From: Eremomyces bilateralis CBS 781.70
Taxonomy: Eukaryota
Assembly (NCBI GenBank): GCA_010015585.1
Contig: ML975154.1
DNA length: 43,140 nucleotides
Direction: 5' to 3' (one strand)
The translations under genes and the position numbers were made by a program. Numbering within the stretch: the stretch's first letter is position 1; every line of letters begins with the position of its first letter. Positions 4,420 to 29,325 of the stretch are shown one piece after another. Below the pieces are notes generated by a model. The model saw only the letters and a program-made list of their open reading frames with translations. It was not told where the DNA came from and made no database searches.

Positions 4420-6085
4420 GAAACTAGACGTAGGGTTGCGGGACGCATTATGCTCAGGTCGTCTCGAACCCCAGAATTCGGAATATTTCTACTGGTCAGG
4501 GGTGCATTCTGACGTAGCGTACATAGGACAAGTGTCAGAATGCCAATGATACGATAGCTGAGAGCTCTCTACGAAGAGACAGATTAATGTGCCTACCTAT
4601 GTAAACCTGCCCGATACTTCCCCCCAGACACTAGGTCCTGCCCAGCGCCTGGGACATGATGGCTTGCAAACTGGGACGGTTTCATTTCAACATTGTGATG
4701 CGGCGTTATGAGATGGTCTCAAGGGCGCAGATTCGTTCCAGATACCCAGTCAGGAATCTCTGCTCCCTCCCGCCTATACGTAGCTACTCGCCGTCCGGTT
4801 GGATCGAAGGTTTCCCATCGGTCAGCACGGACTATATCGTCTGCCTAGACGGCTCCCAGAGTCGGCCAGAGAGGAGAGATCAGAGAACCAAACGATAATA
4901 AATAGATAGGCGAGCTCCTATCCTTGCGGGCCATGAGAGGGAAATATGCACGAGGACAAACATGATTAAGCTGGGGTAATTAGGGTCAGTGCGCAGCGGT
5001 AGAGGGCGGCTCCAATGATCAAAGTGCCTGGGGACTGAGGAACGGATATGGAGGATAGAGAGGATTTGGTAGATGGATGGAACAGGAAGGTCGAAAGTTG
5101 ATGGATGCGGATCAAAAGCACGAGGCCCTAGCCTTGCTCCAAGCCACCAGCTCATCACCAAGACACCAAGCCGACGCTAGGCAAGACAAGATTAGCGGGG
5201 GACGCCACATACCTTTGAAGCACTTTAACGTTGGTAGCTATCTTTGCTGCAAATGCAAAGGTTCAGGCATTTGGCATATCATTCAATATCAGTTCCGTAC
5301 TCCTGTGAGTGAGAAAGGAATCGAGAGGCTTGCGATGCACTGCGATGATTCTGCGACACACTCCGACACCTCATTGGCCGATTCAACCTCCGCGCTAGGA
5401 TACGAATAAGCAGCAATGTCGATCGATCATCCTTCGACCTTTGAGGGATTGATCCTTATCAATCGGCTCTGATCTCACTCCCATTGGGTCTGCCTAGGCC
5501 CTAGAAAAATCTGGCCTCCACATATCACGGCTAACGGTTAACGCTCTTATCCACTTAGGCCAATGGACAGTCCCAACCCTGAGATATCATTTCCCCAGGG
5601 TCGACACGCCGGCTAGTTCGGTCGAGATGCCCTGGTTTTTGGTAGTATTTCATCGTCGTAGCACCAACGGCTGGGTCGCTTGTAGTACGTACGAGACCCT
5701 GGTGGACTTAGCGGAGACTACTGCTAGGATGGGAAGCTGCTAAGATTGGGTTTCCCGCTCGCACATTGCTGATATCGTGTGGTTGGCCAGTCATTTGCTT
5801 TTGCGTCTGCAGCCCTTCGAGGTGGACGGGAAGGGTGATGGAACGTTGGTGCGCATCTATCGGCGCGGTCCGATGAGACATACATATTGTGCTCGTGTCT
5901 CGCTGTCGCTCTTAAGCACCAAGATTTTCCGACTCCTTCACACATCCCAACGAGAGGGTCCGCTAGCGATTGACGTTCCGGCCGGCAAGAATCGAGTGGA
6001 TATAGGAAACGGTTCGAGCCTCGAGGACCTTGACAGGTTGTCTTTGTGCTTCTTCGATCGACATCTTCTTGTGTTCCGTTCCACA

Positions 6086-8172
6086 ATGGCATCGGACGAT
6101 CGTCACAATATGTCCCCTCAGCGGGGCGTATCCCCCAACCCCGACCCAGCTCTGGACTACGCCAACGAGCATATCCACCAACACCTGCATCACGACCCTC
6201 GTGCGGTGTCGAAAGATGAAAATGTGATGTATACCACAGGAACGACGGTGGACAAGTCGGCTATCCCCGACCCGAGCCCTCTGGAGCATGATTTGCACAA
6301 GCGACATCCTATCGAGCGGACTCTCGGCGAGAAAGCGGCGGCCGAAAAGAATGGCGGCGTGGCATATGATGCCGAGAAGGGCGAATATGAAGGACAGGAG
6401 CCCGCTTCTGAGACCGAAGAAGAGCGGAAGAAGAGTTTATTTGCTCTGTATTATGCCAAGTACCGATTCGTCGCTCATATCGCTGTCTTCGTCGTGTTCA
6501 CCGGGTAAGTCCATCCCACGACTTGCGATTCGAAGCTATTCAAACCCCAGTTAGAGAAGAAGTGCTTACGAATGGCGATGTAGCTGGTGGATAGCAGGTC
6601 TCGTCCTTCACCGGAAGGATAAGAATTGGCTCATCCCCTTCCTTCTGTGGCTCGCCATCTCGCTCCGTCTGCTCTTCTTCTATATCCCCAGCACGATCAT
6701 TTCGAAGCCGATGCACCTCATCTGGAACAACACGGGTGTCCGATTTGCGGATCTGATTCCAAAGAAATTCCAGATCCCTCTCGGTGCGCTTTTGGTCATT
6801 GCCGTGATCCTTGTCGGTTCTTTCGCCTCTGAGGAAACCGAAGACAATACGCGAGAAAACAGGGCCGTCAGCTTGTTCGGTCTGGTTGTGATCATCTTCG
6901 GTCTCTGGCTCACCAGCCGAAATCGAAAGGCCATCAAATGGCACACCGTGATCGTGGGTATGCTGATGCAGTTCATCATCGCCCTATTCGTCCTCCGAAC
7001 TCAGGCCGGTTACGATATCTTCGATTTCATCTCCACCTTGGCTCGCGAGCTCCTTGGATTTGCCGAAAAAGGTGTCGAATTCTTGACAGACGATACTGTC
7101 CCTCCGTTGCACTGGTTCATCAGCGGTGTGCTTCCTGCTATCATCTTCTTCGTCTCGATTGTACAGGTCCTCTACTACCTCGGTATTCTGCAGTGGTTCA
7201 TCGGTAAATTTGCCGTGTTCTTCTTTTGGAGTATGCGCGTCTCTGGAGCCGAAGCCGTCGTTGCGGCCGCCTCCCCCTTCATCGGACAGGGTGAATCCGC
7301 CATGTTGGTAAAGCCGTTCGTTGCGCACATGACGGTGGCAGAAATCCATCAAATCATGACGTCTGGTTTCGCCACGATTGCTGGTTCCGTGCTCGTCGCA
7401 TATATTTCGATGGGTGTCTCCCCTCAGGCCTTGATCTCCAGCTGCGTCATGTCGATTCCGGCATCGCTAGCCACCTCGAAGCTACGATATCCGGAAGAGG
7501 AGGAGTCCTTGACCGCTGGGCGGGTAGTTATTCCCGACGACGACGAGCACAAAGCTGCGAACGTCCTTCACTCGTTTGCCAACGGTGCTTGGCTAGGTTT
7601 GAAGATCGCAGGCATGATTCTGTGCACGATTCTTTGCATCATTGCCCTCATTGGCTTGATCGATGGTCTCTTAACCTGGTGGGGCCGTTATTTGAGCATC
7701 CACGACCCAGACCTGACTCTGGAACTCATCCTCGGATACCTTTGCTATCCGGTTGCTTTCCTGATGGGCGTCCCGCGAGGTGATTTACTCCGAGTCGGGG
7801 AACTGGTCGGTGTCAAGATCGTCGCTGTAAGTATTCCCGTCCTATGCCAGCATTGCGTCAGTCCAGATATTTACATCGTGACAGAACGAGTTCGTCGCCT
7901 ACGCCCGCCTCGTCGACCCCGAGAAATACCCGCAATATGCTGCGATGGCCGTCCGCTCTAAACTCATTGCGACATACGCTCTGTGCGGATTCGGTAACAT
8001 CGGGTCTTTGGGTATTCAGATCGGTGTGCTCTCTCAAATCTCCCCTAGCCGAAGCGGTGATGTCAGCCGAGTTGCGGTCAGCTCGCTCATCACTGGTGTT
8101 CTCAGCACTCTGAGCTCCGCAACCATCGCTGGGCTTCTCATTACAGACCAAGGGAAGTTCATCAGTGTCTAG
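6086..8172 (+). CDS. CNT: Concentrative nucleoside transporter (CNT/SLC28 family, H+/nucleoside symporter)
   Basis: join(6086..6504,6584..7826,7885..8172); introns 6505-6583 and 7827-7884 are both GTAAGT...AG. Family motifs: AAASPFIGQGES, IMTSGFATIAGSVL, SSCVMSIPA, NEFVAY (restored by splicing), YALCGFGNIGSLGIQIG. Confidence 0.95.
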
Positions 8173-10312
8173 GTCTTGTGACCACCGGTGGCTCGTTCAG
8201 TAATGTATTGGTAGCTTGAGTAGCAAATGAACGATCCTTCTTTTCATCTCATTCGAGCATAAAACGCGTTGAATGAATGAAATAATAGCACCGCAGGGCA
8301 ACCTGTGAATTGGAATCTTGAGAGACAAACGAAGAAGACGAAAACATTGAACAGGAGATAAAAGGTTGAGGTCGTCTCGGTGTCCCAAAACGGCATCGCG
8401 GTCACCCCAATCCAAGCAAAACACGAATCACGCCTTTCTACTTTCGACTGGTGCGATGCTCGAATAATGCTAGCTCCATTACTAAGCCAATCATGTTCCT
8501 CCTTTTATTTGGTGACCTCGTATTCCGTATTTGTAATCACAATATATTAATAGATATTGTCTATGGATCATACTGGTCTCAGACCTGGTTGAATATTCTT
8601 TTCGCGAGAGTTGATTGTAAATGATAGAAAATGTATCATCCAAATCACTGGCTCGACTAAGTACCAGTTGTTTGTAATTTCTCAGTTGTTTCATTCCATG
8701 GTCCATCGCGTCGCAGCTGAAGGTGTGTATCAGGGGCTACATATATGTATGGACGCGCCTCCTAAACAGCAATATAACAAAAGAAATGCCAGCCTGGACC
8801 CAGCTTGACATCTAGACGGCTTATGGGAGAGCCCAATGCTCCCCCAAAGAACATCCCAAAATTTCGAAAAGGCAGAGAAAGTGACAACGACCATAATTTA
8901 GTACTGCTCGAAAGGCCATGAAACCAAAAAAGTCCTACCAGGACGATTGAGTGAGCGTGAAAGGCAGAAACAAACCAAAGGACAACACTCTCCGAACTCG
9001 CCCGACACTGCGCTTTTGATGTGGCGCACGAGCGAGCTGCACTGTTATCAGGATGGGAATCATATACCTAATATGTTCATTTCATCAGCCATGCTTCAGA
9101 GTTCAGAGACAAGAGTTGAGAAATAGCGAATGTCAGGGGGTGTTTTCTAGCACGAATCCTTTGCTCAGTTCCGTAATGAACTCACATGCATTGTGAGTGT
9201 GAGAACCCTGCTTGCTTCGAGATACCTTCAACATGAATCTCTTAGGAATAAGGACTCAGGAGGTGCGAAGTCGCAGCCCGCAGGGGTTGTCCAGCTCCGA
9301 ACCCCATCGGATAGCGGCGTAGGTGGTGAACGACAAGTCATGGCCCTCATGGGAGTCATGGGTTGCCTGCTCTTGGCGCCAGCCACAAAGTGTTAATTTT
9401 GTCTTTTGACTAAACTCTGTTGACAATCTCTCATGAGCTTATCTCAAAGTCAATCTCTTTCCCACTCTCTGAATTACAGCCAAGGATACAGGTAAGCGTG
9501 TTTCTCCGGCATCTGCCATGCCCTGAACTTGCGTCGATCGATCAGCGATCCAATGAGTGGCTCTCCAGCTTGAGTCTTGGATCCTTATCAGCTCGTATGC
9601 ACGATACCCTTGCTTCAGTCATGCACAATCCCGTGGAGCGCGCCTCAATATCTCGATGCGAAGATGGTATCCGGCATGTCGCGTGCAAATAGCCTCCTCG
9701 CCTGGATCGCACCTGGGTCTTCCTTTCGGCGGGCAGCCAACATCCCACGAGGGCTCTGTTGATATCTCAAGCCAAGAACACGCCCTAGTGTCAGATTTGA
9801 TATAGCGACGCCACTGATTAACCCTCCGAATGGGAATCAACGATTCAGAAGAAGTAAAACTGGATCTGTGCTAAAATCGTTACGGATTATCCAAATCGTA
9901 GTGTCCGAATCACTTCATTGGCTCTGTGGAACCCGGATCTCGAGGCCTTGGACCCTCGAATATGCGAGTTTCGCGAGTTTGGGTCTTGGATTCGCAGCCT
10001 ATCTTTTTACGGAATCGAAACAGTGACGCCATGGGGACTGTAACCCGGGGAGCAGTCTGATATTCATGGGGGACAAAGAGAAAGAGCATGGAGTTGGCCG
10101 ATCACCATGCCATCACGCTGCAAGCGCGTGGAGTTTATAAGTAACGCGGCGCCCGGTGGGTCACGGTTTGTTTGTTGTCGGAATCTTGAAATATTGCTAT
10201 CCCGTCTATACTGAACGGTGTGTAACTCGTGAGACTTTTGGACTTCGAAGTCCCTTTCTGCTTCCTTATCCACACGGTCACTCGGGTCATCATCGAATTA
10301 CCTGGTACCAGC

Positions 10313-13116
10313 ATGGCGGAACCGCCTCTCAGTCAGGGCGTCGGATATGGCGTTGTCATTGGGCTGGGATTCCTGTTTGCGTAAGTGGCGCCATCCGTTG
10401 CAATTGGAAGTCAGCATATCCCATTACTGTACTACCCGGTTTTCTTTTCGCGAGACCCCGAGGGCCTCTATCAAGTCTCTGTCTCTACGTCCGTTTTTAG
10501 ACCTGTTAAGCGTGTGGACGAAGGAAGACTTGGGAGGGCCGAAGGCCATCGCGAAAGGATCACAGCTCGATGATCTAGACTCATGTTAAATCAAAGCTCT
10601 TGGAAAGTGTTGGGGTATAAAATGCATATTCCGGCTCTGAAATACCCACTTGGATCCATATTGTTACAGTGTTTTGCGCCAAAGAGCATTTGACTAATTG
10701 GATATTAGTTTTGGTATGATTTTGACCACCTTCGTCCTCAAGCGTTACAACTATGAGCTCCAAACCTCCGAAATGTTCAGCACGGCCGGTCGAACGGTGA
10801 AGTCTGGACTTGTTGCCTCAGCTGTCGTTTCCTCCTGGACCTGGGCAGCGACCCTGCTTCAGTCATCCGGTGTCGCATACAAATAGTAGGCACGCAAGCA
10901 ACAAAGAGACCAAGGAAATGTGCTGACAAGCTCTAGTGGCGTCTCCGGGCCCTTCTGGTATGCCAGTGGCGCAACTGTCCAAATCATCCTGTTCGCGACC
11001 CTGGCTATCGAACTGAAGCGCCGCGCTCCCAACGCACATACCTTCCTTGAAGTCATCAGGGCACGTTATGGAAAGGTCACCCACTTTGTCTATATCACGT
11101 TTGGTCTCATGACAAATATCCTGGTGACTTCCATGCTGCTGACAGGAGGTTCCGCAGTCGTGACATCGCTCACCGGTGTCCCAACTGCGGCGGCTTGCTT
11201 CCTACTCCCGATCGGCGTTGTGCTCTATACCATGTTCGGTGGAATTAAAGCGACGTTCTTGACTGATTATGCGCACACGGTCGTGATTCTCGTAATGTGA
11301 GTGGAGAAGGAGTTGCTTTAACACAGCCCTAACCCCTGACCTGAAACCTTCTCACCTATCTCTCGCCCAACGCTGTTTCTATCGAACGAATTACCAGCTA
11401 ACGGAACATCCTAGCATCATGACCTTTGCCTTCACTACGTATGCTACTAGTGATGTACTCGGAAGCCCTGGTAAAGTATGGGAGATTCTAGTCGAGAAGG
11501 GCAAGGAGTTTCCCGTTGAAGGCAATGAGGGAGGCTCTTATCTGACCATGCGATCGCGCGAAGGAGCCATCTTCTTCGTCATCAATATCGTAGGTAACTT
11601 TGGTGAGTGCAATGTTCCCTGTTCTTGAAATTTGTCGTACATCCCGGATTCCCTTTTCAGTCTCTTCAGTGCTCCCCTGGCCATATTGATGCGTCGATGA
11701 ACTTTAGCAATTGCGCCTCTCTAGAACTATCGCTAACTAGGTTGTGCAGGCACTGTGTTCATGGATAATGGATATTACAACAAGGCTATTGCTGCCCATC
11801 CAGTCCATGCCCTTCCAGGCTACGTCCTTGGGGGTCTCTCTTGGGTATATATTCCTCCCAAACTCGAGCAGACAATCAACTAACTCCAAAAGTTTGCCAT
11901 CCCATGGTTGGCCGCTACGACGATGGGACTGGCAGCCTTGGCGCTCGAAGGCCACTCCTCCTTCCCTACCTATCCCGACCGTCTCCCCGCCGCCGACGTG
12001 AACGCCGGTCTCGTGCTTCCGAGCGCCGCTGTTGCACTGCTTGGCAAGGGAGGTGCTGCCGCTACTCTGCTGCTGATCTTCATGGCGGTTACGTCGGCCA
12101 TGTCGGCGGAGTTGATCGCCGTGTCGTCCATTGCGACCTACGACATCTATCAGACCTACATTAACCCGGCCGCCTCGGGCAAGCGCCTTATTTACTCGGC
12201 GCACATGTGTGTTGTCGCCTATGCGTTCCTCATGGCGGCGTTCTCTACTGGCCTGTACTATGCTGGTATCTCCATGGGTATGTCACTAAGTGGAACTGGC
12301 AGATCTTTCCATACATTGAATTCATCCTAGAATCACTAGCTAATCTTCCGATCCACAGGCTACCTCTACCTGCTCATGGGCGTCATAATTGGAGCCGCCG
12401 TCCTCCCCGCCGCCCTCACACTCCTCTGGTCTCAACAAAACTGGTGGGCCGCCACCCTCGCCCCCCCACTCGGCCTCGTCTGCGCCCTCATCGGCTGGCT
12501 TGTTCAAGCGAAGCAAGAATTCGGCACCCTCACCGTCGACTCCACCGGCGCCAACAATCCCATGCTGGTCGGCAACGTCGTCGCGCTCATCTCGCCCATG
12601 ATCTTCATCCCCGTGCTGACCTACGCGCTCGGCACCCAGAAGTACGACTGGCAGAGCATGAAGGAGATCCGGCGCGCCGACGACCACGACCTGGCGGATG
12701 CCGCGCACATCGACCTTGAGCTGATCCCTGGCGGGCGGAGGGAATCCATCGCGAAGACCGAAGAAGAGCAGGTGAAGCTGGCGAAGGCGGCGAAGTTCGC
12801 GCGCATCCTCACCGTGACGTTGACGCTGTCCATGCTCGTGCTGTGGCCGATGCCGATGTACGGCTCGGGCTACATTTTCAGCAAGAAGTTCTTCACCGGC
12901 TGGGTGGTCGTCGGTATGATCTGGATCTTCTTTAGCACCGTGTGCGTCGGGCTCTACCCTCTCTATGAGGGCCGCGGCACCATGGCTCGGACGGCGAAAG
13001 CGGTGTATTTGGATCTGACGGGGAAGAAGAAGCCGACGCCAGTGCATGGACAGGTGGTGGAGGAGACGGGCACGAGTACGCCGACAGAGAAGGTTGCCCC
13101 TGAGAAGACGGGGTGA
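10313..13116 (+). CDS. DUR3: Urea (and possibly polyamine) active transporter, sodium:solute symporter family, DUR3/UreA clade
   Basis: join(10313..10380,10709..10885,10937..11296,11415..11602,11750..11844,11893..12277,12359..13116); all six introns are GT-AG and keep the frame. Motifs: [124 protein letters not shown]. Confidence 0.96.
10381..10708 (+). other. Long (328 nt), extensively self-complementary first intron of DUR3; candidate structured RNA element
   Basis: Donor GTAAGT at 10381, branch TGACTAAT at 10691-10698, acceptor TAG at 10706-10708. Nested pairings read by eye: 10443-10453/10549-10559, 10463-10478/10526-10540, 10488-10492/10516-10520, 10591-10603/10679-10693, 10605-10618/10642-10651. 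Confidence 0.6.
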
Positions 13117-13473: not shown

Positions 13474-14607
13474 CTACGACGTCTTGAGCGGGCTAATTTC
13501 CAAAACCGCCTTCCCAAAGTTCTTCCCCTGCAGCATCCCCACGAACCCCTCCGCCGCCCCGTCGATGCCCTCAGTCGTAGACATCTGCGCCTTGAAGCTC
13601 CCGTCTGCGATCCACTTGCTCACATTTTCGCGATGCTCCTTCGCATACACGGGACCCATGTTGTCGTCGCCGACGATGAATCCGCGGAACGTGATGCGCC
13701 TGGCGACGATCAGCATGAGGTTGCGGATGGGGTAGGCCGGGGTGGGGTTCTCGGCAGTGGGGAGCAGGTTGTATTGGCTGATCATGCCACAGGCAACTAG
13801 AGCCGTTGTTAGCGGAAGATATTAGAAATGGGGGCCAATGAAATGGTTCGTACCGATTCTCCCAAAGGCTTTCATCGCATCGATTGCTGCTTCGAGCTGC
13901 TCGCCGCCGACATTCTCGTAGTAAATGTCTATGCCGTCCGGCGCAAGTCGCGCAAGCGCTGCTGCAGGCTTCTCCTTCTTATAATTGAATCCCGAATCGA
14001 ATCCTAGATCCTTGAGGATGAAGTCAAGCTTCTTGTCATCACCAACGCTCCCAATGACCTTAAGTCCCTCATGCTTGGCCAATTGCCCGACCAGCTGCCC
14101 CACCGCTCCCGACGCCGCCGAGATGAAGATCGTCTCCCCCTTCTTCGGCTTCCCGATGTCGTAGAAGGATGAATAGGCGGTCAACCCAGGCATTCCCAGC
14201 GCGCCAATGAAAACCTTCGGGTCGAGCTTATACGGATTGTCTAGTACGTGCGCCCGCTCTGTGACCTCCTTATCCAGATACCCATATTCGGCCGTCGGGC
14301 AGCTGTCCGTGCTCACAATGACATCCCCCGCCTTGAAGTTCGGGTTGTCGCTCTTCAGCACGGTGCTGATTCCGCGGTTGGTGATGGGCTCGTTCAGCTT
14401 GAATGGTGCGGAGTAGCTTTTGATATCGGGGGCTCGCATGCGCCCGCGCTGGTACGGGTCGAAGGAGAGGTAGTGGTTCTTGACCGAGAGGCCACCGGCC
14501 GGTGGGGTGTCGGGGTTGAACTCGCGGGATTCAACGACCAGATCCTGGCCTGGGACAGGGTAGCCCTGCGGGACCTGCTTGAAGATGAGACCTTTGTTGG
14601 CGACCAT
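13474..14607 (-). CDS. NADP-dependent oxidoreductase, zinc-independent MDR family (prostaglandin/2-alkenal reductase-like)
   Basis: complement(join(13474..13796,13854..14607)); 57-nt intron GTACGA...CTAAC...TAG restores GRIVACGMISQYN. Motifs: YLSFDPYQRGRM, GALGMPGLTAY, FISAASGAVGQLVGQLAK, GIDIYYENVGG, GKNFGKAVL. Confidence 0.95.
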
Positions 14608-15476
14608 GGTGGAGGTTTGAGGAGTTTGAGGAGTTGAAAATGTTCAATTGGAATCTAGAAGTATCAATTCCCAGTTCTTAACTAAGATAACCACGATGTT
14701 CGATATTTAATGGGGGTGATAGCCTATGGTAAGCCGGGGAATGCAAGGAGGTCGGTCGTGCAGAGTATATATAGGTGTCTTAGATGGGCAGGAGGCGACT
14801 ATAGAAGTTACGGTAGCACAGAGGAAGTCCCTCTATTACAAATCAAGCACCATACGACCGGTTACGAAAGAATTGCGAGATTTGAACCCTCCTTCTGGCT
14901 AAGAGGGTCTCGATAGATTGCCTCGGTAGGATAGACCAATGCTTTCCACGTCCACATCTCGGGCACACTTCTCTTTTCGACCAGCTCCTCACAGCTTGAG
15001 CTGCTGGTGGTGGATTTCATCGGGTCCATTGCTCATTGTCCGGGCTATCCCCGAGTCCGATTTGTGAGTGGAACGCCTAGGACACGATTGGAAAGTTCTT
15101 AGCCCGAATAAGGCGATATAAAATGGACTGTTCAGCGTCAGATTGAGAAGCTGAAGACGAAATGGGGGGTATGACGTTCGTGGGGTGTGTGCTCAGGCTC
15201 AAATTGATGCCTTATATGCCTGTCCAGGTCAGCTGCAGTGTGCCAGCCAATCCGTTCCACTGCGGACATTATTCGTTACGGACATTATCTTTGACCACAT
15301 GCAGCACCATACATCAAAACTCCGTACAGATTACAGACACAGACGGTATTAAATATTAATCAGGTTATTGTTAATATTAATGCCGATATATCCACCTTCT
15401 TAGGGAACCAATTATCAATCAACGATTTCTCCGCCGATCAAACCCCTCTCCATATGCTTACCAATCGACCATCACA

Positions 15477-16343
15477 ATGTCCAACCCCATAGCGAAAGAT
15501 CCACCACCACCCTATGTCTCGACAACCCCGACCATCCCCCCACCACGTCCTCATGGAGTTGCCCGTCCTCCCTTCCCCCTCGAGCTCCCCTCTATCGCCG
15601 CCCTCAAATCCCAGCGCGTCATCCTCGCCAGCGCCTCCCCCCGACGCAAGCAGATCCTCTCGCAACTCTTCCCCAAAGTCGAGATCATCCCGTCAACCTT
15701 CGCCGAGGACCTCCCCAAGTCGCTCGGCGGCTTCGACTACGTGCTGCAGACGGCCGTCGCCAAATGCCGCGAGGTGTACGGGCGGGAGATCGACAACGTG
15801 GAGGCGGAGCGGGAACGGGGGGAGGTCGGGGTGGTGATCGCGGCAGATACGATCGTGATGAGCGCGGCGGGGCAGATTTTGGAGAAACCGAGGAGCGAGG
15901 CGCAGCATGTGGCGGTGTTGAAGAGTTTACGGGATGAGTCGAGGATAGGCTCGGAGATGAATCCTGGCGCGGGGATTGCGGTGGGAGGGGCTGGTGCTGG
16001 ATGGCATAAGGTCTATACGGCGCTGGCGATCATGAGGCCCATGACGACGGCGATGGATCCTGGATATGTGCTGACGACACATGTTGAGGAGACGTCCGTT
16101 AAGTTCGACCCGGATATCACGGATGACCTGATTGTGGCCTACGTCAAGACCCGGGAAGGCGCGGACAAGGCGGGTGGGTACGGGATGCAAGGGCTTGGAA
16201 GTCTTCTCGTGGAACGGATCGAAGGGTCTTGGGACAATGTTGTCGGCATGCCGCTCCGAGCGACATTGGTCTTGATCGAAAAGATCCTGGTCGATGAACA
16301 GGAAGAACTTGATGAAGCACGGGAACTCGAGGAAGAGTACTGA
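15477..16343 (+). CDS. maf: Maf-family nucleoside triphosphate pyrophosphatase (dTTP/UTP type)
   Basis: Intronless 288-aa ORF with ILASASPRRKQIL, VIAADTIV, ILEKP, DKAGGYGMQG and IEGSWDNVVGMP motifs. Confidence 0.93.
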   Translation: MSNPIAKDPPPPYVSTTPTIPPPRPHGVARPPFPLELPSIAALKSQRVILASASPRRKQILSQLFPKVEIIPSTFAEDLPKSLGGFDYVLQTAVAKCREVYGREIDNVEAERERGEVGVVIAADTIVMSAAGQILEKPRSEAQHVAVLKSLRDESRIGSEMNPGAGIAVGGAGAGWHKVYTALAIMRPMTTAMDPGYVLTTHVEETSVKFDPDITDDLIVAYVKTREGADKAGGYGMQGLGSLLVERIEGSWDNVVGMPLRATLVLIEKILVDEQEELDEARELEEEY

Positions 16344-27900: not shown

Positions 27901-29325
27901 CAAACGAGATACACGCCGTCGTTCGCGGTTGCGCGGATGCTTCATCTTAGTCCCCTGGTGTTGAGCAGGCTGACGTCGGCATTTTCGGTCAACTCCAGTG
28001 GACTCCGCCTGAACTTGGGGCTCAACTTGAAGTTCGAGTCCAAGAAGCAAAAGGTCCTTGGATACTCTCGCAAATCAACCTCCGGGTGGGAGTACAGTCC
28101 AAAGGCAGTCGAGCTGATCCAGCAATACATGATCCGATTCCCGGAGTTCATAGCTGGAGTGAGTGCGAACCCGAAGGGCGATCTCTACGAGGACACCGAC
28201 TTCTACCCTCAAGATGTCGCTGCGGCGAAAATGAAAGAGATCGGCCAATGGCTGAAGTCCATTGAAGCCAAGAGCTTTGAACGTGTTTCCCTGGAAGCCG
28301 AGCAGCTCGACTCCGATGTTGTGGCACAGATTGAGCAAAAGGCGGACCAGATCAGCCAGAACTCGCCTCCGTTCGAACGGAAGCGCATCAAGAGCGTTCC
28401 TCGCAATGCCATCCTCAAGCCATCCGACGCGGAGCAACGCATCGGTCCTCAGCGTTTCCAACTCGGCGATCGTATCGTCTACGTCCTTGACTCCGGTCGT
28501 GTCCCCATTGGTCTGAAAGGAACTGTGGTCGGCATGACCCGCACGTCGCGGACGATGTTCCTGGACGTCGTGTTCGATCATACATTCATGTCCGGATCGT
28601 CCCTCGGTGAGCGGTGCTCGCCATTCCGCGGATCCACCGTTCCAGCCGAGAGTGTCCTAAATCTCACCGACAAGCAAGCCATCGTTTACACGTCCGCTTC
28701 CTCTGCTCGAAATCCAAACCAAGCCGCCGAACCGCTTACGGTGCCTGGCTACTACGGTGCTCCTGCCGCCGCCGGTGGTGCAGGCCAATACCGCGCCGCC
28801 CCATCACCCGCGCCGCTTCGCGGATCGTTCCGCGGTGCCTTATCTCGAGGCAACAACGGCACGCCTCGAGGCGGTGCCCGAGGGCAGTTCCAACAATCCC
28901 TCCCCTTCCGCACCGCCGAGCAAAACACCCCGCCCGCCAACGAAAACGGCACCGTGTCCAACAGCCGCGGCCGCGCCGGCTACGCCCCCAGAAACTTCCC
29001 CAACTCCTCGCCCGCCCACCCCGGCCAAAACGGCCACATCCAGCGTGGCCGCGGCCGCGGCGGGCTCGGCTCGGGGTCCGCGCCGCATGTCAACAACACG
29101 CAGGGATTCGTGGTCACGGATTTGGATAACCCGGCGGAGGGCATCGTGCCGAACAATCCGAACTTTCAGCCGCAACAGTATAACTCGGTGCCGCCTCCGT
29201 CGACGCTGCATCCGAATCAGGGGCGCGGTCGCGGGGGGTTTGGCGGGGGGAGGGGGAGGGGGTTTAATGGGGGAAGGGGGAGGGGTGGGCCGAGGGGTGG
29301 GAGAGGGCGTGGACAGGCGCAGTAG
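24931..29325 (+). CDS. XRN1: 5'-3' exoribonuclease 1
   Basis: join(24931..25029,25081..29325); intron GTATGT...CTGAC...CAG. Motifs: MGVPKFFRWLSERYP, LYLDMNGIIHNC, MAIDGVAPRAKMNQQRARRF, FDSNCITPGTEFM, VPGEGEHKIMEYIR, HCLYGLDADLIML. Length and C-terminal domains fit XRN1 rather than XRN2/Rat1. Confidence 0.97.

Follow-up and report, generated by a model that had tools for sequence, protein, structure and literature searches.

We analysed a window of 43,140 nucleotides (nt), the whole stretch of DNA considered here, from contig ML975154.1 of Eremomyces bilateralis CBS 781.70 (assembly GCA_010015585.1), which carries a gene for a DUR3-type urea transporter on its plus strand (10314 to about 13116). 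The first intron of this gene (intron 1) contains a long irregular hairpin, formed by a DNA palindrome that folds equally well on both strands, is found once in the sequences searched and lies in an intron that is short in other fungi. We favour, with a probability of about 0.55, the view that the hairpin is a relic palindrome from an insertion or an inverted duplication, which folds passively and is spliced out. The observation of a long hairpin in intron 1, made earlier from the sequence alone (the original prediction), was confirmed.

Fold of the hairpin and its stability against chance

The hairpin and the elements associated with it are as follows.

10443..10559, plus strand: irregular hairpin of 117 nt, an imperfect DNA palindrome; 42 pairs (21 GC, 15 AU, 6 GU), -50.8 kcal/mol
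10494..10500, plus strand: TTTTTAG, resembling a splice acceptor, in the hairpin's apical part, read from the sequence
10559..10574, plus strand: small GAUCA/UGAUC hairpin of 4-5 base pairs adjoining the long hairpin, seen both in the centroid structure of 10441-10576 and in the minimum free energy (MFE) structure of the minus strand

The hairpin at 10443-10559 is unbranched, and the same pairs were kept in the MFE and centroid structures of the entire intron 1. All three stems described in the original prediction were present in the MFE and centroid structures of 10441-10576, as well as in the fold of the entire intron, with an MFE pairing at the apex that differed slightly from the earlier version. 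The small GAUCA/UGAUC hairpin was likewise recovered, in the centroid structure of 10441-10576, and the sequence of a proposed competing GGCC-GAA-GGCC hairpin (GGCCGAAGGCC) was found at 10537-10547. The string TTTTTAG was located at 10494-10500 as described, and use of it as an acceptor would give the premature stop that had been foreseen, since the exon 1 frame continued from 10501 meets a TGA at 10571-10573. On reading the 40 nt upstream of this string, we saw nothing resembling a CTRAY branch point.

Stability was compared with that of shuffled sequences, as had been suggested with the original prediction. The 136-nt segment 10441-10576 folded modestly better than its own shuffles (z -2.31), with 5 of 200 equally stable. 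When the entire intron 1 was shuffled and the best local fold with a span of up to 120 nt was taken, the mean was -33.5 with a standard deviation (SD) of 4.2, and only 1 of 500 shuffles reached -50.8; part of this excess arises because G+C is higher where the hairpin lies than elsewhere in intron 1. The entire intron 1 was not significantly structured (z -1.38, with 9 of 100 shuffles equally good). None of the other five introns of the gene folded better than its shuffles (z +0.25, +2.03, +0.83, +0.52 and +0.65). As this includes the introns of 118 and 147 nt, structure is no general need of the introns of this gene. Of introns 3 and 4 (11297-11414 and 11602-11748), intron 4 had less structure than almost all of its shuffles (z +2.03).

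Local folds were also scanned across the 43 kb in 120-nt windows with a step of 10 on both strands (n = 8606), followed by regression on G+C. The hairpin ranked 8th of 8606 after regression, and all seven scan windows ahead of it came from one G+C-rich locus on the minus strand (28951-29130). Its residual of -2.78 SD was followed by values of -2.76, -2.70 and -2.67, which places it in the tail of the distribution and not as an outlier. Unbranched MFE folds of at least 42 pairs were found in 16 scan windows, and the hairpin was the most stable among those with a G+C below 0.6. We read these results to mean that self-complementarity is genuinely in excess at the hairpin, to an extent to be expected once or twice in a scan of 43 kb. 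The minus-strand locus at 28951-29130 was the most stable of the scan, at -64 to -71 kcal/mol per 120 nt with a G+C of 0.70-0.78 and residuals as low as -4.0 SD. Palindromes of the CCGCGGCCGCGGCC type occur in this G+C-rich sequence, which is maybe just low-complexity coding sequence.

The minus strand of the hairpin region folded with an energy of -50.4 kcal/mol (z -3.21), and none of 200 shuffles was equally good. Of the 42 plus-strand pairs 6 were G-U, as were 3 of the 38 minus-strand pairs. The two arms of the hairpin aligned with a likeness of about 70% and several gaps. The segment 10443-10559 is an imperfect palindrome at the level of DNA. Transcript structures under selection are usually biased to the transcribed strand, and the equal folding of both strands without such a bias therefore points to a DNA palindrome and not to an RNA kept by selection.

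Splicing of intron 1 and its counterparts in other fungi

The last exon of the gene was 100% identical to a deposited protein of 676 amino acids, which its source names as an Eremomyces bilateralis CBS 781.70 urea active transporter, and the runner-up proteins were about 71-73% identical over that exon. The deposited model (P0001) equals the spliced translation, with an N-terminus formed by 10314-10380 and the sequence from 10709. A transcript-like contig was found in run X3, which we took to be RNA by guess only and whose contigs, being assembled, lose rare splice forms. This contig lacked six GT..AG segments, corresponding to all six introns of the gene.

10314..10380, plus strand: exon 1, with ATG at 10314, 22 codons and 2 bases; translation equal to the start of P0001; covered by the X3 contig, joint 10380>10709
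10381..10708, plus strand: intron 1, 328 nt, GTAAGT...TTAG; X3 joint 10380>10709 with GT..AG ends
10693-10698, plus strand: ACTAAT, branch-point-like, 11 nt upstream of the intron 1 acceptor
10709..10885, plus strand: exon 2, bounded by the X3 joints 10380>10709 and 10885>10937
Joint 10885>10937, plus strand: intron 2, 51 nt skipped in the X3 contig
11297-11414, plus strand: intron 3, joint 11296>11415, 118 nt skipped in the X3 contig
11602-11748, plus strand: intron 4, joint 11601>11749, 147 nt skipped in the X3 contig
Joint 11843>11892, plus strand: intron 5, 48 nt skipped in the X3 contig
Joint 12276>12358, plus strand: intron 6, 81 nt skipped in the X3 contig

Intron 1 is real and is spliced out. 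Its predicted length of 328 nt agrees with both the sequence and the joint 10380>10709 in X3, and it is the longest of the six introns, the other five being 48-147 nt long. The accompanying statement that most introns measure 50-80 nt holds only in part for this gene, where the others are 51, 118, 147, 48 and 81 nt, two of them above 100 nt. The ACTAAT at 10693-10698 is presumably the branch-point motif, as judged by its likeness to the consensus. The X3 contigs, from which rare forms are lost, contained only the normal joint 10380>10709 and no joint to 10501.

Counterparts of intron 1 were sought in metagenome contigs, which were scanned with an alignment of five DUR3 proteins and yielded 80 loci. 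Three N-terminal protein pieces were placed on these by local tblastn; 61 of the 80 loci could be scored, and the 19 without a piece were left out. Intron lengths were derived from extrapolated alignment ends and are maybe a few bases off, and organisms repeated across metagenomes are still counted. An intron was present at, or within a few codons of, the site of intron 1 in 39 of the 61 loci, with lengths of 46-78 nt (median 54), and the remaining 22 had no intron there, some of these probably being transcripts. The counterparts are thus too short to hold a hairpin of 117 nt, and intron 1 is 4-7 times longer than they are. No sequence likeness between intron 1 and the 80 fungal DUR3 loci was detected by blastn (best E 0.38), so that the alignment of orthologous first introns suggested with the original prediction offered no alignable counterpart. 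Since the site is widely shared but the intron is short elsewhere, the hairpin lies in sequence added in this lineage. Judged from this comparison, the intron site is ancient and its length lineage-specific.

A relative with about 80-82% exon identity (X4) also has an intron at this site. Its sequence aligned from 10705 onward only, and the preceding 30 letters were unlike intron 1. In X4, introns 3 and 4 are shorter than their counterparts here (55 letters versus 118 skipped, and 86 versus 136, respectively), which suggests a general lengthening of introns in this lineage.

A different intron, one mini-exon downstream and following the LKR codons, was found in 8 of the 61 loci, with lengths of 52 to 305 nt. 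Long introns were seen in locus L008 (3157-3458, with the same gene recovered from another metagenome as L010; 304-305 nt) and in L069 (3105-3278; 174 nt), in each case beyond a mini-exon of 36 nt and following the LKR codons. In L008 the long intron occurs together with one of 52 nt at the site of intron 1. On folding, the long introns of L008 (302 nt folded) and L069 (174 nt) gave z values of -1.12 and -0.10; each has a short near-perfect hairpin and is not unusually structured. Long DUR3 introns therefore have no common tendency to excess structure. A likeness of intron 1 to the 304-nt intron of L008, noticed by eye, was dropped as chance, as blastn did not support it.

The X3 contig with the spliced gene is 8888 nt long, begins about 1.3 kb before 9900 and extends about 5 kb beyond 13300. 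It covers the 5' untranslated region (UTR) of the urea transporter over at least 9900-10313, and fuses the transporter with adjacent genes, whether by overlap of their UTRs, by read-through or by a join made in assembly. The upstream neighbour (5744-7961, plus strand) is a concentrative nucleoside transporter with the Pfam domains Nucleos_tra2_N/C and Gate. Downstream, Pfam identified a zinc-type alcohol dehydrogenase family oxidoreductase (13822-14643, minus strand) and a Maf-like protein (15381-16343, plus strand). The neighbouring genes, as classified by Pfam, formed no obvious nitrogen-metabolism cluster around the urea transporter.

Copy number and known RNA and element classes

The original prediction had raised the possibility of a relic of a miniature inverted-repeat transposable element (MITE). 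A 24-nt probe, allowed up to 3 mismatches, matched the window only once, and short-word blastn of intron 1 against the window gave no other match longer than 14 nt. When genome run X1 was searched at a likeness of at least 80%, a range that excludes more diverged copies, 1 of 130,522 contigs was placed and no second contig was found. The single placed contig (31,120 nt) spans the hairpin region without any difference, and X1 is maybe the source of this DNA. A repeated element of 117 bp would be expected to break this contig or to add pieces, although the reach of the aligner for short diverged copies is uncertain. No target-site duplication was found at the edges of the stem, where the bases just outside are TT and TC. 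A direct repeat of 24 nt (10414-10437 and 10624-10647, 71% alike) flanks the hairpin with a spacing of 210 nt; it was rejected as a target-site duplication, about 0.3 chance matches being expected by a rough estimate.

The equal folding of both strands is what a MITE relic would lead one to expect, but the missing target-site duplication and the absence of a second copy in the window or in X1 (at least 80% likeness) are not. The hairpin resembles MITEs and foldback elements in being about 117 bp of noncoding DNA with inverted halves that folds equally on both strands. It differs from MITEs in having no target-site duplication, in being single-copy as searched, and in arms that are only about 70% alike. 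On these searches, the hairpin belongs to no live family with multiple copies, and is at most an old solitary relic.

The Rfam search that had been proposed was carried out with cmscan against Rfam 15 over 9900-11200 on both strands, and gave no match in or near intron 1 at an E of up to 10. The sole match was to sR22, an archaeal C/D RNA, on the minus strand of exon 2 (10816-10871) with 16.5 bits against a gathering threshold of 40 (E 2.6), and we take it as chance. A guanidine- or TPP (thiamine pyrophosphate)-type riboswitch was rejected, as there was no Rfam match. A small nucleolar RNA (snoRNA) was rejected on the same ground, and also on its motifs. In C/D RNAs, box C is UGAUGA and box D is CUGA with a terminal stem, and H/ACA RNAs consist of a hairpin, the H box ANANNA, a second hairpin and ACA. 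There is no UGAUGA box C in intron 1 and no H box beside the stem; at 10562-10564, after the stem, comes an ACA without a second hairpin, and the nearest ANANNA lies about 30 nt beyond. ARAGORN found no tRNA in the window, so a tRNA-derived element was rejected, and no internal set of donor, branch point and acceptor was evident by eye that would indicate a nested (twin) intron. Three GATA sites were seen by eye in intron 1, which is about the chance number by our own estimate. Literature linking DUR3, an intron and a hairpin in fungi was not found in the library searched.

Introner-like elements, which occur in Dothideomycetes and other fungi, are longer than regular introns, have a lower predicted free energy and are multi-copy, as described in PMC3609843. 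Intron 1 resembles them in being an overlong dothideomycete spliceosomal intron with a stable predicted structure, and it has their length trait (328 versus 48-147 nt). However, introner-like elements have many near-identical copies at newly gained positions, whereas intron 1 is single-copy as searched and its site is common to 39 of 61 loci. The structure in intron 1 also fills the middle and not the whole of the intron; with a whole-intron energy of z -1.38, the hairpin is the one segment that is conspicuous. Internal symmetry, as seen here, is also known from other fungal introns, the stwintrons and related introns of Hypoxylaceae (PMC8469720). Those form repeated sister introns, while on a shallow comparison no nested intron and no repeat family was evident here.

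Yeast splicing is promoted by intron stems that bring the donor closer to the branch point (PMC2536676 and PMC12350175). Zipper stems are placed at least 10 nt from the donor and 20 nt or more away from the branch point, and their linkers add up to 42-85 nt, according to PMC12350175. The hairpin is similar to yeast zipper stems of the RPS17B type in being a stable stem in a long intron, placed so that the path from donor to branch point becomes shorter. Its linkers of 62 + 133 = 195 nt, however, are outside 42-85 nt, and its compaction was no better than that of shuffles. The shortest donor-to-branch-point path, calculated for the MFE structure only, was 14 steps as against 16.6 +/- 7.9 in shuffles. 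As 43 of 100 shuffles were as short, compaction is not special to the sequence of intron 1. Template switching in replication creates reverse-complement copies that are able to form RNA hairpins, as described in 10.1101/2021.04.15.439925. The hairpin is like these in being a solitary, local and imperfect inverted repeat without features of a mobile element, and is unlike them in that its arms have several gaps and there is no ancestral state from which a switch could be reconstructed.

Origin of the hairpin and its meaning

We propose that an old and normally short intron of the urea transporter gene was lengthened to 328 nt in this lineage, and that an insertion or a local inverted duplication probably added the palindrome of about 117 bp, with a foldback or MITE-like element or template switching as the possible route. 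The palindrome would have decayed since then. Being local, it is predicted to fold at once into the long hairpin in the pre-mRNA, and ordinary splicing removes it along with the rest of intron 1. It probably has no dedicated regulatory function. A relic is the best of the three readings given in the original prediction, which had also named a cis-regulatory RNA and an intronic small-RNA precursor, but it is a solitary relic and not a member of a MITE family.

Several observations weigh against this proposal. Neither a donor sequence nor a target-site duplication nor an empty site came to light, and an origin by insertion or duplication can therefore only be inferred. An identity of about 70% between gapped arms is also the look expected of a chance hairpin. 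The intron of the closest relative can be read only as its 30-letter end. Splicing was seen in one RNA assembly and a single condition, and constitutive splicing is not thereby shown. Finally, the position of the hairpin as the second best locus of the window for its G+C, together with the 1 of 500 intron shuffles, may indicate selection for structure.

The hairpin could instead be a chance fold, ordinary neutral DNA that happens to give the best of many local folds in a 43-kb window and has no palindromic origin. We consider this unlikely. The local shuffles, with a z of only -2.31 (5 of 200), and the z of -1.38 for the entire intron are in keeping with it, as are the residuals that closely trail -2.78 SD (-2.76, -2.70 and -2.67), the 16 scan windows with unbranched hairpins of at least 42 pairs, and arms that are gapped and only about 70% alike. 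However, an equally stable local fold appeared in just 1 of 500 shuffles of the entire intron and, for the minus strand, in 0 of 200; the hairpin is the most stable scan window at a G+C below 0.6, and the other five introns folded no better than shuffles. It is more doubtful still that the hairpin has been kept as an aid to splicing, packing away 117 nt and hiding decoys such as TTTTTAG, which would let a machinery for short introns still join the donor to a remote branch point in the manner of yeast zipper stems. Such a role would agree with the finding that the hairpin forms when the entire intron 1 is folded, in both its MFE and its centroid structure, with the position of TTTTTAG in its apical part, with the splicing of an intron 4-7 times the length of its counterparts, and with the yeast intron stems that promote splicing (PMC2536676 and PMC12350175). 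On the other hand, the geometry of a zipper failed, with linkers of 195 nt versus the 42-85 nt given in PMC12350175, and 43 of 100 shuffles had a path as short as the 14 steps found (16.6 +/- 7.9 in shuffles, MFE only). Two further introns of the gene, of 118 and 147 nt, are spliced although unstructured, and the pairing has no strand bias.

A regulatory or processed RNA, acting through nitrogen-responsive retention of the intron, through a switch to the cryptic acceptor, or as a microRNA-like precursor from the excised intron, appears very improbable. The long, mostly unbranched hairpin of about 42 pairs does have the dimensions of a precursor, part of the stem could face competition from the GGCC-GAA-GGCC hairpin, and retention of intron 1 or use of the acceptor at 10500 would both end the frame early. 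Against these stand the lack of any Rfam match at an E of up to 10, riboswitch, snoRNA and microRNA families included, the lack of a counterpart in other fungal DUR3 introns, the equal folding of both strands, the absence of a canonical box C (UGAUGA) in intron 1 and of an H box beside the stem, and the normal joint as the only one in the RNA assembly. The splicing-regulatory RNA put forward in the original prediction thus found no support, its counterparts being introns of 46-78 nt with no common sequence. By a slight degree less probable again is a young, lineage-specific functional RNA that arose from a palindromic insertion, serving as a nitrogen-gated splicing switch or as a mirtron-like small-RNA precursor.

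If the hairpin were conserved in the family or affected splicing, the gene would be one of the rare eukaryotic nutrient transporters under the control of an RNA structure in an intron, although nothing found points there. As a relic palindrome, the hairpin would exemplify how, within a single lineage, a fungal intron that is ancient and short can become several times longer and gain a solitary palindrome, and would provide a data point on the origin of long introns and of new RNA hairpins.

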